Positions 3,785 through 43,433 of a stretch of 64,000 nt of DNA are shown in pieces. The position numbers and the translations under genes are program-made. Numbering within the stretch: position 1 is the stretch's first letter; the number at the start of each line of letters is the position of its first letter. Location of the stretch: the sequence record OQ703618.1; one strand, written 5' to 3'. The notes under the pieces were generated by a model. It worked only from the letters and a program-made list of their open reading frames with translations. It had not been told where the DNA came from and did no database searches. Source of the stretch: Escherichia phage GADS24.

Positions 3785-4609
3785 ATGATGTTTGGCTATT
3801 TTTACAACTCGTCGTTCAGGCGATATATCACAATGATGGGCGATTTGTTTTCAAATATCCAAGTTAACCGTCAATTGTCTACAGGCAATAAATTAATTAG
3901 AGTTCCTATTACGTATGCATCTAAAGAGCACTTTATGATGAAACTTAATAAATGGACCTCTATAAACTCACAAGAAGATGTGGCTAAAGTCGAAACTATT
4001 CTACCACGTATAAATCTCCAAATGGTAGATTTCGTTTATAACCCAACGTTTAAAACGAATATATTGAATAACTCTCTTTTGAGTAAATCGACTAAGGATA
4101 TTGTAGACCAATACAACCCATCACCAATTAAAATGATTTTTGAACTGAGCATCTTTACTCGTTATGAAGATGATATGTTCCAAATCGTTGAGCAAATTAT
4201 TCCATATTTTCAGCCGCATTTTAATACGACTATGATTGAGCAATATGGGCAGGATATTCCATTTGAAAGGGATATTAAAGTCGTATGGATGGCAGCAGCA
4301 ATGGATGAACAAATAGACGGTGATAATTTATCTCGTCGACGTTTAGAGTGGTCATTAACATTTGAAGTAAATGGATGGATGTATCCTCCGGTAGGCGCAG
4401 CTGAAGGCCTTATTAAAACGACTTATCTTGATTTTCATGCTAATGAACGAGACCTTCAAACAGCCGCCAGCGTTTTTGAATCAGTTGATACAGAAATTAA
4501 ACCGAGAGACGTTGAAGCACAAGATTGGAATGGTGAAGTTGAACAAACTTATACTCATGATATTCCAATCCCGACTCCACCAACCCCTCCTGGTCCTAGA
4601 AAACAATAA
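3785..4609 (+). CDS. 15: Tail sheath stabiliser / tail terminator gp15
   Basis: 274 aa beginning MMFGYFYNSSFRRY, matching my recollection of the T4 gp15 N-terminus; true start may be the second Met. Confidence 0.88.
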   Translation: MMFGYFYNSSFRRYITMMGDLFSNIQVNRQLSTGNKLIRVPITYASKEHFMMKLNKWTSINSQEDVAKVETILPRINLQMVDFVYNPTFKTNILNNSLLSKSTKDIVDQYNPSPIKMIFELSIFTRYEDDMFQIVEQIIPYFQPHFNTTMIEQYGQDIPFERDIKVVWMAAAMDEQIDGDNLSRRRLEWSLTFEVNGWMYPPVGAAEGLIKTTYLDFHANERDLQTAASVFESVDTEIKPRDVEAQDWNGEVEQTYTHDIPIPTPPTPPGPRKQ

Positions 4610-6935
<2,326 letters not shown>

Positions 6936-6962: not shown

Positions 6963-8945
6963 ATGGCACTTCTCTCTCCGGGCGTTGAGCTCAAAGAAAC
7001 TACCGTACAGAGTACTGTAGTTAATAACTCCACTGGTACTGCTGCCCTGGCTGGAAAATTCCAATGGGGACCTGCATTCCAGATTAAACAAATCACTGAT
7101 GAAGTTGCATTGGTTGATATGTTTGGTACTCCTAATACGGATACAGCAGATTATTTCATGTCTGCTATGAACTTCCTTCAATACGGTAATGACCTTCGTG
7201 TTGTACGCGCAGTTGATCGTGATACTGCTAAGAACTCATCTCCTGTAGCAGGCAATATTGAATTCACAATCTCTGCTGCTGGTAGTAACTATGCAGTTGG
7301 TGATAAAATTATCGTTAAGTATTTGACCGAAACTGTTGAAGCAGATGGTTATGTCACTTCAGTTGATGTCGATGGTAAAATTCTTAACATTTATATCCCA
7401 ACTGGTAAAATTATTGCTCGTGCAAAAGAAATTAATGAATATCCGGCATTGGGTTCTAACTGGACCGCCGAAGTTGCCAGTTCTTCTTCTGGACTTTCTG
7501 GCGTTATTACAATTGGTTCTATCGTAACCGATTCGGGTATTCTGTTAACTGAAGTTGAAACTTCTGAAGAAGCTATTACTTCTCTAACTTTCCAAGAATC
7601 TATTAAAAAATATGGTGTCCCAGGCGTAGTTGCTCTTTATCCTGGTGAACTTGGTGACCAGCTCGAAATTGAAATCGTATCTAAAGCAGACTATGACAAA
7701 GGTGCTTCAGCCCAGTTAAAAATTTATCCTGATGGTGGTACTCGTGCATCTACGGCTAAAGCAATCTTTGGGTATGGCCCACAAACTGATGACCAATATG
7801 CAATTATCGTTCGTCGTAACGATGCAGTAGTTCAGAGCGTAGTTCTTTCTACTAAACGTGGTGAACGCGATATCTATGGTAGTAATATCTTTATTGATGA
7901 TTTCTTTGCTAAAGGCGCAAGCAATTATATTTTCGCTACTGCACAAGGTTGGCCAAAAGGTTTCTCCGGCGTAATCAAATTGGGTGGTGGCTTATCATCT
8001 AATGAAACGGTTGACGCTGGTGATTTAATGGAAGCTTGGGATTTGTTTGCCGACCGCGAATCTGTTAATGCGCAGTTGTTTATTGCCGGTTCTTGTGCAG
8101 GTGAATCTTTAGAAGTTGCTTCTACAGTTCAGAAACATGTTGTAGCAATTGGTGATTCTCGCCAAGATTGTTTGGTTCTTTGCTCACCGCCACGTGCAAC
8201 TATAGTCGGTATTCCTGTTAATCGTGCAGTTGATAATCTGGTTGATTGGCGTACTGCGTCAGGAACTTACACTGATAATAACTTTAATGTAAGTTCTACT
8301 TATGCTGCTATTGACGGTAACTATAAATATCAATATGACAAATATAATGATGTGAATCGTTGGGTTCCATTAGCTGCTGATATTGCTGGTCTTTGTGCTC
8401 GCACAGACAATATTTCTCAGCCTTGGATGTCTCCTGCTGGTTATAACCGTGGACAAATTCTTAACGTTATTAAGCTTGCAATTGAAACTCGTCAACCGCA
8501 GCGTGATCGTTTGTATCAGGAAGCTATTAACCCTGTTACTGGTACAGGTGGTGATGGGTATGTTCTGTATGGCGATAAAACTGCCACTTCTGTTCCTTCA
8601 CCGTTTGACCGTATTAACGTTCGTCGTTTGTTCAATATGGTTAAAACGAACATTGGTTCAGCATCTAAATATCGTCTGTTTGAATTGAACAACGCATTTA
8701 CCCGTTCTTCTTTCCGCACAGAGACTTCTCAATATCTACAGGGTATTAAAGCTCTTGGTGGTGTATATAACTTTAAAGTTGTTTGTGATACTACCAATAA
8801 CACCCCAGCAGTTATCGACCGTAATGAATTTGTAGCTACTTTCTACTTACAACCTGCCCGCTCGATAAATTATATTACGTTGAACTTTGTAGCAACAGCA
8901 ACTGGTGCCGATTTCGACGAACTAATTGGTGCTGTAGGTGGCTAA
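6963..8945 (+). CDS. 18: Contractile tail sheath protein
   Basis: 660 aa (T4 gp18 659 aa); late promoter TATAAATA immediately upstream. Confidence 0.95.
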   Translation: MALLSPGVELKETTVQSTVVNNSTGTAALAGKFQWGPAFQIKQITDEVALVDMFGTPNTDTADYFMSAMNFLQYGNDLRVVRAVDRDTAKNSSPVAGNIEFTISAAGSNYAVGDKIIVKYLTETVEADGYVTSVDVDGKILNIYIPTGKIIARAKEINEYPALGSNWTAEVASSSSGLSGVITIGSIVTDSGILLTEVETSEEAITSLTFQESIKKYGVPGVVALYPGELGDQLEIEIVSKADYDKGASAQLKIYPDGGTRASTAKAIFGYGPQTDDQYAIIVRRNDAVVQSVVLSTKRGERDIYGSNIFIDDFFAKGASNYIFATAQGWPKGFSGVIKLGGGLSSNETVDAGDLMEAWDLFADRESVNAQLFIAGSCAGESLEVASTVQKHVVAIGDSRQDCLVLCSPPRATIVGIPVNRAVDNLVDWRTASGTYTDNNFNVSSTYAAIDGNYKYQYDKYNDVNRWVPLAADIAGLCARTDNISQPWMSPAGYNRGQILNVIKLAIETRQPQRDRLYQEAINPVTGTGGDGYVLYGDKTATSVPSPFDRINVRRLFNMVKTNIGSASKYRLFELNNAFTRSSFRTETSQYLQGIKALGGVYNFKVVCDTTNNTPAVIDRNEFVATFYLQPARSINYITLNFVATATGADFDELIGAVGG

Positions 8946-38248: not shown

Positions 38249-38613
38249 TATAAATTCTCTTTAAATGAAAATGCAGGACTTATTGACATTGCCTGCTCAA
38301 GCCCTCAAGGGGAACATAGGTTTTGGATATTTAACGACAGGATAACCATAAACCCGTCATCATACCTTATAGCTCTTATCTGTTGCACACCGTTAGCTTA
38401 AAGGTTCCGGGTCCGATTTCTCGAGGATAAGATATATACTGATGGATATATAGGCCTTGAGGCGTACTCCCGATTGGCCATCACCTCGGGGTAGCATGCA
38501 CTTACCGCTATAAGAACCACATTCAAGAGGTACACCGTAAAATTGTCGGGGTCTTAAAACTATAATGATTCGCAAATCATTAATCAGACAATTCGACGGC
38601 TCCTCGATTTAAC

Positions 38614-39674: not shown

Positions 39675-40256
39675 TTATTCACCACAAAAGTTTCGGATTT
39701 GTTCCCAATTCAGAGAACGAAGATTATTACGAGAGTACTGAATTACTTCAATACCGGCTTGTTTAAGAATGTCTGCCCAATTTTCAGGAGATCGGTCATA
39801 TAATTCTGCATATACAACCTTTTTAATACCTGACTGTGTAATAGCTTTAGTGCAATCAGGACATGGAGAAAGTGTCGTATACAACGTAGCACCTTCAATA
39901 GAATTACCTTTACGAGCTGCAAACAAAATTGCATTCAATTCTGCATGGATTTCGTTATTAGCAGACCATGCACTATGAGCGGCCCGATGTTCTTTAGCCA
40001 AAACAAAATTATCTACCCGTCCAAATGCTGTAGTGCCTTCTTTATGTCCAGCAACTATGACCGGGCTTGGTTTATTCTTCAACCAACCATTTTCTGATGC
40101 GTGTTCACAACAGTTAACGCCACCTGCTGGTGAGCCATTATATCCAGTAGAGATAATGCGTCCATCTTTTTCAATGACGGCACCAACTTTCCATGAACAA
40201 CATTTTGATTCTTGAGAAATCAGATATGCAATCTGAAGGTATGTGCTAGCTTTCAT
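39675..40256 (-). CDS. cd: dCMP deaminase
   Basis: 193 aa; zinc-binding deaminase motifs HAELNAI and PCPDC. Confidence 0.92.
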   Translation of the reverse strand: MKASTYLQIAYLISQESKCCSWKVGAVIEKDGRIISTGYNGSPAGGVNCCEHASENGWLKNKPSPVIVAGHKEGTTAFGRVDNFVLAKEHRAAHSAWSANNEIHAELNAILFAARKGNSIEGATLYTTLSPCPDCTKAITQSGIKKVVYAELYDRSPENWADILKQAGIEVIQYSRNNLRSLNWEQIRNFCGE

Positions 40257-41248
40257 TATTGAACCTTATTAATATGAGTTAACAGCTCTTTAGTTTGTTC
40301 CCAACTGATGCACGCATCGGTAACGGAAACGCCATAGGACATATTATCAGAAATTTTTTGATTTCCTTCATGTAGGAATGATTCTATCATAATTCCTTTG
40401 ACCAAATCATTAGCTGCTAAATTTTTACCAATACCAATTTGATTGCTATAATGCCCATCAGCGTTTGCATGGCTACAGTCAACCATTACATAATGATTCA
40501 GACCTACTGCCCTTGCTTTGTTAGAAGCTTCTTGAATATCAGAAGAATGATAGTTCGGGCCGTTGGTCCCGCCACGCAATACGATATGCGTATTCTGATT
40601 ACCTTCAGCTTCAACAATGCCTACAGTACCATCGACGTCCATACCCATATACCGATGAGGCCAGGCGGCACTATACATCGCGTCTGTAGCTACTTTAATA
40701 GAACCATTGGTTGCGTTCTTGAAGCCTACGCACATCGGTAGACCTGAAGCAATTTCACGATGTGTCTGACTTTCAGTCGTACGGGCGCCAATAGCAACCC
40801 ATGAGAAAATACCAGAAAGATACTTAATCGTGAATGGGTCTAATACTTCAGTTGCTAATGGAAGTCCCATACGTAGAAGTTTACGACACAATGTTCGTGC
40901 AACTATAAGACCGTGGTTCATATCAAAACTTCCGTCAAGATATGGATCATTTACAAGACCTTTCCAACCTACGGTAGTTCGAGGCTTTTCAAAATAAACG
41001 CGCATCACTAACAGAACATTAGGAAGACGAGTTTGAAGTTCAGCCAGACGTTTGCCGTATTCAACAGCAGCAATAGGGTCATGAATTGAACAAGGACCTA
41101 CAACAATAAGTTTGCGTGGGTCTTCACCGTTCATAATCGAATTAACTTGTTCGCGATGAGAAGCCACTTGTGATGCGTAAGCTTCCGACAAAGGAATAAT
41201 CTCAGCCAGTTCTTTTGGAGAAATAAGTTTTCCGACGACAGGTAACAT
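40256..41248 (-). CDS. 3-deoxy-D-arabino-heptulosonate-7-phosphate (DAHP) synthase, class I, AroH-like
   Basis: 330 aa; strong matches to E. coli AroG/AroH motifs (GPCSIHD, MRVYFEKPRTTVGWKGL, IGARTTESQ, VGFKN, DCSHAN, ESFLHEGNQ); GC content visibly above flanking phage genes. Confidence 0.9.
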   Translation of the reverse strand: MLPVVGKLISPKELAEIIPLSEAYASQVASHREQVNSIMNGEDPRKLIVVGPCSIHDPIAAVEYGKRLAELQTRLPNVLLVMRVYFEKPRTTVGWKGLVNDPYLDGSFDMNHGLIVARTLCRKLLRMGLPLATEVLDPFTIKYLSGIFSWVAIGARTTESQTHREIASGLPMCVGFKNATNGSIKVATDAMYSAAWPHRYMGMDVDGTVGIVEAEGNQNTHIVLRGGTNGPNYHSSDIQEASNKARAVGLNHYVMVDCSHANADGHYSNQIGIGKNLAANDLVKGIMIESFLHEGNQKISDNMSYGVSVTDACISWEQTKELLTHINKVQ

Positions 41249-41370
41249 AACAATCCTTAGGAGATATAAACAGATTCTGATTCAACAATACCTTTAACCA
41301 GATTAGACAGGCTAAGTTGGTAGTGCCTCAAGATTTATGACCATTCTCGATAGTAATGAGATAGCTCTCA

Positions 41371-41607
41371 TTATAGTGTTCCATATACTCGAGTTGCTTC
41401 AACAAGACCATCACTGCCTAATTTAAGATTAGTAATTTGGTCACCATCTTTAGGATTAACGATTATGAGAAAAGAACGTGGAGATTCTTGAATAACTCGT
41501 AATGTTGCATCTTGGAAACGTTCAGACACTTTATTGATGAGTGCTTGAGCAAATTCTTTTACTTTAATCTGAAATTCGTGTACTGTAATTGGGTTTTCAC
41601 TTAGCAT
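41371..41607 (-). CDS. Hypothetical protein
   Basis: 78-aa ORF between DAHP synthase and pseT. Confidence 0.5.
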   Translation of the reverse strand: MLSENPITVHEFQIKVKEFAQALINKVSERFQDATLRVIQESPRSFLIIVNPKDGDQITNLKLGSDGLVEATRVYGTL

Positions 41608-41634
41608 TTCTATTTCCTCATTTGTTGGTAGAGT

Positions 41635-41665
41635 TATAGTATCACAACTCCACCATGTTGTAAAC
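41635..41665 (-). promoter_or_regulatory. Early-type promoter (family member)
   Basis: GTTTAC / TGATACTATA with GAGGAAA ribosome-binding site. Confidence 0.55.
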
Positions 41666-41667
41666 CA

Positions 41668-41943
41668 TTAAATTGCTTTGCATTCAATTTTTTGTGTACC
41701 AAAATTGATATCACATTGGATAACTAAATCGCCGTCAAGATCAAATACCACTATGGCGTGTGCAGACCCAGGGAGAAGAGTAATAGCAATAGAATCTACT
41801 TGGTCCGGGAGCAAAGCATTGAGTACATGAGTTAGCTGAGCATGAACTCTGAGTTCGGCTGCATTATCAAGCACTTCAAACATATTATTAGCAATAATCT
41901 GACTGAAGACTACCTTTACAATTTCAGAATAAGTTGGGAACAT
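41668..41943 (-). CDS. Hypothetical protein
   Basis: 91-aa ORF with an early-promoter-like element upstream. Confidence 0.5.
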   Translation of the reverse strand: MFPTYSEIVKVVFSQIIANNMFEVLDNAAELRVHAQLTHVLNALLPDQVDSIAITLLPGSAHAIVVFDLDGDLVIQCDINFGTQKIECKAI

Positions 41944-41950
41944 AATTACC

Positions 41951-42175
41951 TCAGTGTACAGTATTTACTTTAACTCGAACAACAAATCGCTCGGTCGGTT
42001 CACCTACAGGAACAAACTCTACATGATATTCGCCTTTGTAACGAGTATTCAGATCATTACGAATTCCTGCGAGTTTGTTGATTAATGTAGGACTCATATT
42101 AAGTCCCACTAATTTACGAAGCATTTTGTATGCTTCATCTTCGATTTCATGATGTTTATCGTACATAGTTTTCAT
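41951..42175 (-). CDS. Hypothetical protein
   Basis: 74-aa ORF. Confidence 0.5.
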   Translation of the reverse strand: MKTMYDKHHEIEDEAYKMLRKLVGLNMSPTLINKLAGIRNDLNTRYKGEYHVEFVPVGEPTERFVVRVKVNTVH

Positions 42176-42346
42176 TTAACCATTCAATTGCCTGGTCGAC
42201 GTTATCAAATATACCGCCGTCCAACCATTCTTCATGTTCATAGTCCAGCACATCAATACCGAACCGTCCATTTACTAAAGGCCATACTACAAACAAATAT
42301 TCTTTATGCTGTTCGATGACCTCAATCACTTCATATAATCGTTTCA

Positions 42347-42347
<1 letters not shown>
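42156..42347 (-). CDS. Hypothetical protein
   Basis: 63-aa acidic ORF overlapping the pseT stop. Confidence 0.45.

Positions 42348-43433
<1,086 letters not shown>

Follow-up and report, generated by a model that had tools for sequence, protein, structure and literature searches.

The DAHP synthase gene and its surroundings

The stretch of Escherichia phage GADS24 analysed here (OQ703618.1; 64,000 nucleotides, referred to as the window) carries on its minus strand a gene for a type I-alpha DAHP synthase (3-deoxy-7-phosphoheptulonate synthase, DAHPS), which belongs to a phage clade catalogued as PHROG 5045. The coding sequence is located at positions 40256-41248, starts with ATG and encodes a protein of 330 amino acids. 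The presence of this gene in GADS24 is ordinary; what is added here is a feedback-resistance signature in the encoded enzyme that extends across the entire phage clade.

In a first-pass annotation of the same DNA, the whole interval 40256-41370 had been assigned to the DAHPS gene. The segment 40256-41248 is indeed coding, while 41249-41370 (minus strand) is a spacer of 122 nt located 5' of the gene, which does not code for DAHPS and carries the ribosome binding site AAGGA at 41258-41254. A longer N-terminus of the protein is impossible since the open reading frame (ORF) starts at the first ATG, GTG or TTG after the upstream stop codon, which is how all ORF starts were set. The downstream neighbour is cd (39675-40256, minus strand), the gene for a dCMP deaminase of 193 amino acids, whose start codon is shared with the stop codon of the DAHPS gene in the overlap TAATG. 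The upstream neighbour, apparently in the same transcription unit, is a cd.2-like ORF of 78 amino acids (DUF7320; 41371-41607, minus strand), and pseT (42347-43246) is located upstream of the region with the cd.2-like ORF. The DAHPS gene is situated among the nucleotide-metabolism genes cd, pseT, nrdAB, td and frd, which form a cluster within 10 kb. No tRNA genes were found in the window. The database names of genes near DAHPS are unreliable, such that in phi25-307 and Entb_45 cd is listed as “ribD riboflavin biosynthesis protein” or “tRNA-specific adenosine deaminase”, and pseT as “AAA family ATPase”.

Neither a sigma-70-like promoter nor a late promoter (TATAAATA) was identified in the spacer at 41249-41370, in agreement with the earlier remark that an early-promoter element is missing directly upstream of the gene. 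Likewise, no significant fold was predicted for the spacer RNA (z -0.29), and the spacer gave no match to Rfam. The nearest upstream promoter-like site, which resembles an early promoter, is located between the cd.3-like and cd.2-like ORFs (41636-41664, minus strand) and consists of TTTACA and TACTAT separated by 17 nt, with a TG. Read from 41664 to 41636, it aligns almost base for base with the T4 early promoter Pe133295, and it is also nearly identical to the RB69 sequence. This site is the probable start of a transcript that would cover cd.2, DAHPS and cd, and on these sequence features an early co-transcription of the three genes is likely. A small ORF in the spacer has been annotated in ST0 (41 amino acids) and JK45 (50 amino acids). 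In the window (41257-41414, minus strand), this ORF is split by a 2-nt indel into pieces of 28 and 24 amino acids, and it probably does not represent a real gene, or else has become a pseudogene in the window.

Enzyme type and the inhibitor site

The phage protein matched the Pfam family DAHP_synth_1 (PF00793) with an E-value of 5e-75 and a score of 252 bits (cutoff 25.5), as well as the NCBIfam models TIGR00034 (aroFGH, 429 bits, cutoff 173) and NF009395 (subfamily, 456 bits, cutoff 343). The four motifs quoted in the first-pass annotation are all present in the translation (GPCSIHD at residues 51-57, KPRTTVGWKGL at 88-98, IGARTTESQ at 153-161 and DCSHAN at 257-262), and the annotation rightly described a class I DAHP synthase of full length in which the catalytic motifs are preserved. 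The metal ligands C53, H260, E289 and D311 are aligned with C61, H268, E302 and D326 in AroG, and also with the corresponding residues in AroF and AroH. The residues that bind phosphoenolpyruvate (PEP) and phosphate, R83, K88, R90, R156, K177 and R225, correspond to R92, K97, R99, R165, K186 and R234 in AroG. All of these metal- and PEP-binding residues are invariant over 123 aligned homologues, of which 25 are from the phage clade and 98 are bacterial; in total, 65 alignment columns are invariant in this set, which was also used for the comparison of the regulatory site below.

An AlphaFold model of the phage protein (pLDDT 91.8) was compared with known structures using Foldseek and superimposed on the I-alpha DAHPS structures from Neisseria meningitidis and E. 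coli with a TM score of 0.95 and an rmsd of 1.7 Å. The model displays the (beta/alpha)8 barrel of the DAHPS/KDO8PS superfamily. The beta6a/6b hairpin between alpha5 and beta6 is retained, with no deletion in the alignment and with strands at residues 198-203 and 209-214 in the model. The protein is predicted to be a catalytically competent type I-alpha DAHPS, which would convert PEP and erythrose-4-phosphate to DAHP.

The top sequence match in PDB was E. coli AroF (6AGM, E-value 3e-105), and the identity to the three E. coli isozymes is 51% for AroF, 47% for AroG and 44% for AroH. The previous designation of the protein as “AroH-like” had to be abandoned: AroH is the least identical isozyme, and the score to the AroH model NF009396 was only 386.5 bits, as compared to a cutoff of 463. 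The score to the AroG-specific NCBIfam model was also below its cutoff. The position that determines Tyr/Phe specificity (S211 in AroG, G226 in Aro4) is occupied by Gly202, as in Tyr-type enzymes. We thus classify the phage protein as AroF type. It shares with the Tyr-sensitive AroF of E. coli (6AGL/6AGM) the fold, the metal and PEP ligands and the Gly at the specificity position, but it is 26 residues shorter and lacks AroF residues 1-10, including N8. In addition, P151-Q152 of AroF are replaced by I-K, S181 by P and F210 by Y, two short deletions occur within the phage protein, and its C-terminus is shorter as well.

For the inhibitor site, we considered 13 positions in AroG that had been selected beforehand from the literature and general knowledge. 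The N-terminus of the phage protein is 9-11 residues shorter than in AroF, AroG and AroH in the alignment, which confirms the shorter N-terminus noted in the first-pass annotation for the comparison with AroG and AroH. AroG D6/D7 have no counterparts in the phage protein, and the N-terminal D/N-D/N motif is absent. In the AroG structure (1KFL), D6, D7, I10 and I13 belong to an acidic and hydrophobic N-terminal segment, by which each subunit completes the inhibitor site of its partner. Inside the pocket, AroG P150 is replaced by I141, Q151 by K142, D155 by G146, S180 by P171 and F209 by Y200. The N-terminal extension and the contacts Pro150/Gln151/Ser180/Phe209, by which feedback-regulated I-alpha enzymes are recognized, are thus both lacking in the phage DAHPS.

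These replacements are not specific to GADS24. All 25 phage-clade proteins have K or R at position 142, P at 171 and Y at 200, as compared to Gln, Ser/Thr and Phe/Leu in all 98 bacterial homologues. Similarly, the conserved Pro follows after only 8-12 residues in each of the 25 phage proteins, versus 16-53 (median 19) in the 98 bacterial proteins. The signature thereby separates the two groups perfectly (25/25 phage-clade proteins, 0/98 bacterial homologues). In the whole protein, only eight columns are fixed differently in phages and bacteria, and four of these are among the 13 pre-selected positions (hypergeometric p = 9e-5); a fifth column corresponds to D155.

Several of the altered positions are known from enzymes with relaxed regulation. 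In 2014, Zhang et al. reportedly obtained feedback-resistant DAHPS by engineering of the N-terminal domain. The yeast allele ARO4 Q166K has a deregulated phenotype. Because Q166 in the Aro4 sequence (PDB 1HFB) is located within the same “SPQY” motif, at the position of K142 in the phage protein, the phage lysine reproduces ARO4 Q166K, which is listed as a standard deregulated yeast allele (PMC7214760). In AroG, P150L and S180F confer feedback resistance, Q151 (Q152 in AroF) and S180 (S181 in AroF) bind the main chain of the inhibitor, and D155 stabilises the site (PMC9529685). When set beside the feedback-resistant alleles AroG P150L, S180F and D146N, yeast ARO4 Q166K and the N-terminally engineered AroG/AroF, the phage proteins are changed at P150, Q151 and S180, with a Q-to-K change identical to that in ARO4 Q166K, and the N-terminal segment is also missing. 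Unlike the laboratory alleles, the phage clade combines several changes that have been fixed by evolution, and the Ile at P150 and the Pro at S180 are different substitutions. The clade-wide signature at known feedback-resistance positions, together with the missing N-terminal segment, provides in silico support for the feedback insensitivity proposed in the first-pass annotation, and the phage lineage probably does not respond to Tyr and Phe in the way that its bacterial relatives do.

Alternatively, the protein could be an ordinary Tyr-type DAHPS that is still regulated and only replaces a host enzyme that is no longer made after shut-off. The similarity to AroF, the Gly at the Tyr/Phe specificity position, the retained beta6a/6b hairpin and the strong conservation of the pocket residues within the clade are compatible with such a role, but three residues in contact with the inhibitor site or involved in its shape have been replaced, one of them by a Q-to-K change known to desensitise, the segment that completes the site in the partner subunit is missing, and all of these changes are clade-wide. 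We therefore consider continued regulation by Tyr unlikely.

The conservation of the pocket also bears on a second alternative, namely that the pocket has been retuned to bind another small molecule, so that the enzyme answers to a non-aromatic signal. I141, K142, G146, P171 and Y200 are 94-100% fixed in a clade with 55-98% sequence identity, which exceeds the average column and indicates that the pocket is under selection in its new form; moreover, a positive charge and a hydroxyl group are introduced by the substitutions, which thus do more than fill the cavity. If repurposed for another effector, these five residues would give the phage a control knob on the aromatic and central-carbon metabolism of the host, an idea to which we assign a low probability. 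No candidate ligand is known, the conservation could also stem from packing by which the enzyme is held in its active state, or from the dimer interface, and the loss of the N-terminal lid speaks against a closed binding site, which makes retuning in general improbable. The pocket may thus be locked, or may matter for the dimer interface, or may, less likely, be tuned to another ligand.

Distribution, synteny and age of the gene

The phage protein matched PHROG 5045 with an E-value of 5.4e-182, with residues 1-330 aligned to positions 8-337 of the 341 positions in the profile. This family is annotated as “phospho-2-dehydro-3-deoxyheptonate aldolase” in the category “moron, auxiliary metabolic gene and host takeover”, and its members from JS09, HX01, ST0, NHEP10, phi25-307, PEi20, X20, PM2 and EI belong to the same family and locus as the protein in the window. 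A tblastn search identified the gene in 212 phage records, 139 of which showed at least 95% identity (Mosigvirus of the JS09/HX01/ST0 type); the NHEP10 protein is 100% identical to the one in the window. The remaining records, with 57-77% identity, represent T4-like phages of Enterobacter, Edwardsiella, Erwinia, Klebsiella, Serratia, Proteus and others. Most of the 212 records, and more than 100 in GenBank, already carry the annotation DAHP synthase, and among T4-like phages of enterobacteria the gene is thus a widespread auxiliary metabolic gene that has already been catalogued. Two published papers refer to it only briefly, at the level of annotation, as a putative auxiliary metabolic gene (PMC11845039, PMC8022965). 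The representative of the phage DAHPS cluster is labelled Escherichia coli, although it is located on a contig of 170,875 bp.

The gene is accessory and uncharacterised rather than universal. In T4, the order of genes at the locus is cd, cd.1, cd.2 ... pseT, with no DAHPS gene, and the statement in the first-pass annotation that only small cd.x ORFs are present at this position in T4 is correct, as shown by cd.1 and cd.2. In RB69, which also has no DAHPS gene, cd.2 directly overlaps cd. The gene is hence not a universal and already characterised core gene of these phages, which had been named as an outcome that would speak against the proposal. Alignment of RB69 to the window revealed a clean indel of 1115 nt, which coincides with the interval 40256-41370. 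The indel is bounded by a 12-nt direct repeat, in which each copy consists of a stop codon and ATG. The left copy, TAATGAGAGCTA (41362-41373, minus strand, read from 41373 to 41362), contains the cd.2 stop and a pseudo-start that resembles the start of cd, and the right copy, TAATGAAAGCTA (40247-40258, minus strand, read from 40258 to 40247), contains the DAHPS stop, which overlaps the true start of cd. The repeat consensus is TAATGA(G/A)AGCTA, and the sequence that follows the left copy partly resembles the 5' end of cd. The repeat could have mediated a deletion in the RB69 lineage, or could be the scar of an insertion. The empty site was observed in approximately 11 Mosigvirus records (two of RB69, ECO111 5-P, JK36, JK42, moha and five of mar005P1), as compared to 139 records with the gene.

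Two side observations concern the phages in this comparison. In RB69 (NC_004928), the cd frame (7671-8252 of the locus sequence) has an internal stop codon near the C-terminus (..ADILKPSWY*SNSV..), and the annotated Cd protein is 169 rather than 193 amino acids long, owing to an error in sequencing or else to a genuine lesion. Shigella phage JK45 (NC_054940) is filed under Tequatrovirus, but the 13 kb around its gene have the Mosigvirus gene order and are mostly 90-99% identical to the window.

We compared the locus in five lineages that represent four Straboviridae genera plus Marfavirus, namely Mosigvirus, Kanagawavirus Entb_45, Marfavirus EI, Bragavirus PM2 and Winklervirus X20. The order pseT, small ORFs, DAHPS, 0-2 ORFs and cd was found in all five, and the same order from pseT to cd was found on a divergent metagenomic T4-like contig. 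The identity of DAHPS to the homologs in Entb_45, EI, PM2 and X20 is 76, 66, 58 and 68%, respectively, as compared to 84, 79, 65 and 71% for cd and 57, 64, 45 and 56% for pseT, such that the divergence of DAHPS tracks that of its neighbours. In a neighbour-joining tree with bootstrap support, inferred from Kimura distances, the 18 phage-clade sequences included were monophyletic with 100% bootstrap support. The phage clade is placed inside the Gly-type (AroF-like) group, apart from AroG and AroH, and the support for its sister group is 51%. No specific bacterial donor was found: the nearest bacterial homologues are all approximately 50-55% identical and are taxonomically scattered over Planctomycetota, Pontiella, Pseudomonadales and Enterobacterales AroF.

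The higher GC content that had been noted for the gene was recovered locally, with a peak of 48% in one 300-nt segment, but over the whole gene it is 41.4%, which is only about one standard deviation (SD) above the mean (38.1% in the whole window; mean of ORFs 38.4, SD 2.7; +1.1 SD). The excess resides in codon positions 1 and 2. At third codon positions, the GC content (GC3) is 29.6%, similar to the phage mean of 30.9%; since GC3 is fully ameliorated, the GC content is no mark of a recent foreign origin and was rejected as a sign of recent transfer. Taken together, the synteny, the tracking divergence, the monophyly and the ameliorated GC3 argue for an old acquisition rather than a recent insertion, and the idea of a gene recently inserted between cd and pseT gives way to that of a long-resident one. 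The data suggest a single old acquisition, co-evolution with the phage backbones and loss in some lineages.

In Klebsiella phage EI, genes for SegB-like and MobE-like homing endonucleases flank DAHPS (1981-2575 and 4510-5048 of the EI locus sequence), and in Proteus phage PM2 a homing endonuclease gene is located beside pseT. The interval between pseT and cd is a hotspot of plasticity and could move the cassette between co-infecting phages. The most divergent DAHPS of the phage clade is carried by two metagenomic contigs, one of which is from a crustacean-associated metagenome. This protein has the signature PKGPYG, with Pro retained at the P150 position, and resides in another gene setting, without an adjacent cd and beside a 394-amino-acid protein with a faint Zeta_toxin-like match.

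Within Mosigvirus, the gene is unusually uniform. The DAHPS genes of the window and ST0 differ by one synonymous and six nonsynonymous substitutions (synonymous divergence, pS, 0.004), as compared to 145 synonymous and 65 nonsynonymous substitutions in 18 neighbouring genes (pS 0.105; Fisher p = 0.005). Over the central 600 nt of the gene (41173-40574), the identity to ST0, JK45 and phi25-307 amounts to 99.7-100%, as compared to 93-97% for the adjacent cd. The block of low divergence comprises DAHPS and cd.2-cd.4 (40256-42347), and the flanks at 39675-40256 and 42347-43246 are more diverged. The few amino-acid changes among the Mosigvirus proteins are concentrated in the vestigial N-terminus, at residues 2-6. 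A test of constraint based on dN/dS within Mosigvirus was dropped because of the 0-3 synonymous differences per pair. The uniformity of the block points to one allele that has recently spread by recombination among Mosigvirus phages, or to a recombination block, rather than to decay. Elsewhere in the region, a 365-nt stretch between the 30.9-like and rIII genes (38249-38613) contains no credible ORF and has the highest local GC content (43%) and the lowest identity to relatives (81-88%).

The same data make it very improbable that the gene is a dispensable passenger with little or no current function in GADS24. Its absence from T4, RB69, JK36, JK42, moha, mar005P1 and ECO111 5-P and a ratio of nonsynonymous to synonymous differences (pN/pS) of about 1 within Mosigvirus would fit a passenger, but this ratio rests on 0-3 synonymous changes, and the low pS relative to the flanks (0.004 versus 0.105) is better explained by a recently spread allele than by decay. 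Furthermore, each of the 139 close relatives has an intact ORF, the catalytic residues are invariant in the clade down to 55% identity, and the position of the gene is conserved.

Possible feedback escape during infection

The interpretation that we favour, with moderate confidence, is that an old, phage-only lineage of AroF type encodes a working type I-alpha DAHP synthase, in which the remodelled Tyr/Phe inhibitor site and the loss of the N-terminal regulatory segment would permit escape from feedback by aromatic amino acids. The gene is probably read at an early stage, in one unit with cd.2 and cd and from the promoter located between cd.3 and cd.2, and would sustain the entry of carbon into the host shikimate pathway during infection, for aromatic amino acids and other chorismate products. 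This flow would continue despite the shut-off of the host aro genes and at aromatic amino-acid levels that inhibit the host isozymes. The product of benefit may be aromatic amino acids for a large burst of virion proteins, or other chorismate products. Folate had been given as an example in the first-pass annotation, with reference to the nearby td and frd genes. However, T4 and RB69 carry td and frd without a DAHPS gene, and the specific folate argument is therefore without support.

Several observations weigh against this interpretation. The altered pocket residues are 94-100% conserved in the phage clade, as compared to a protein average of 72%, while an abandoned pocket would be expected to drift, so the pocket may still bind something or serve the structure. 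The regulatory beta6a/6b hairpin has been retained, and Gly202 is the specificity residue of Tyr-type enzymes. The effects assigned to the phage residues are extrapolated from different replacements at these sites (P150L, S180F), known from other enzymes. T4, RB69 and about ten other Mosigvirus records do without the gene, which is thus dispensable for them. Alleles from close Mosigvirus relatives differ mostly by nonsynonymous substitutions, in counts that are very small, with 0-3 synonymous differences per pair. Finally, no enzyme assay, expression data or phage-mutant phenotype for the phage DAHPS was found in the literature searched.

The location of the gene also allows for a different use of an unregulated enzyme, by which DAHPS would act as a drain on erythrose-4-phosphate and PEP, for example by shifting the non-oxidative pentose-phosphate pathway towards pentoses for nucleotides. 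The gene is part of a nucleotide-metabolism cluster (cd, pseT, nrdAB, td, frd), with which it is probably co-transcribed, a deregulated enzyme would be compatible with a sink, and there is an analogy to the pentose-phosphate auxiliary genes of cyanophages. Nevertheless, the argument is purely inferential, erythrose-4-phosphate is itself needed to make pentoses from hexoses, so that a drain costs carbon, and no gene for transketolase or transaldolase co-occurs in the region examined. We regard such a drain as quite improbable.

Auxiliary metabolic genes of T4-like phages include talC and other pentose-phosphate genes in cyanophages. Like these genes and those for NAD salvage in KVP40, the DAHPS gene encodes a host-derived enzyme of central metabolism among the early genes of a lytic myovirus. 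It differs in the pathway concerned, and it is distinguished by the remodelling of the allosteric site rather than by mere possession of the gene.

To our knowledge, all characterised type I-alpha DAHPS are regulated by their end products, and in industry the same kind of change to DAHPS is made by mutagenesis. The phage lineage resembles a type I-alpha DAHPS that natural evolution has made feedback-resistant through multiple substitutions, and the signature turns the idea of feedback insensitivity into a concrete and testable prediction. The presence or absence of the gene within Mosigvirus (139 records versus approximately 11, including RB69) offers natural controls for comparisons of fitness. 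If the prediction is true, the clade would provide ready-made deregulated enzymes for metabolic engineering, and it would show a lytic phage overriding the main control point of aromatic biosynthesis.

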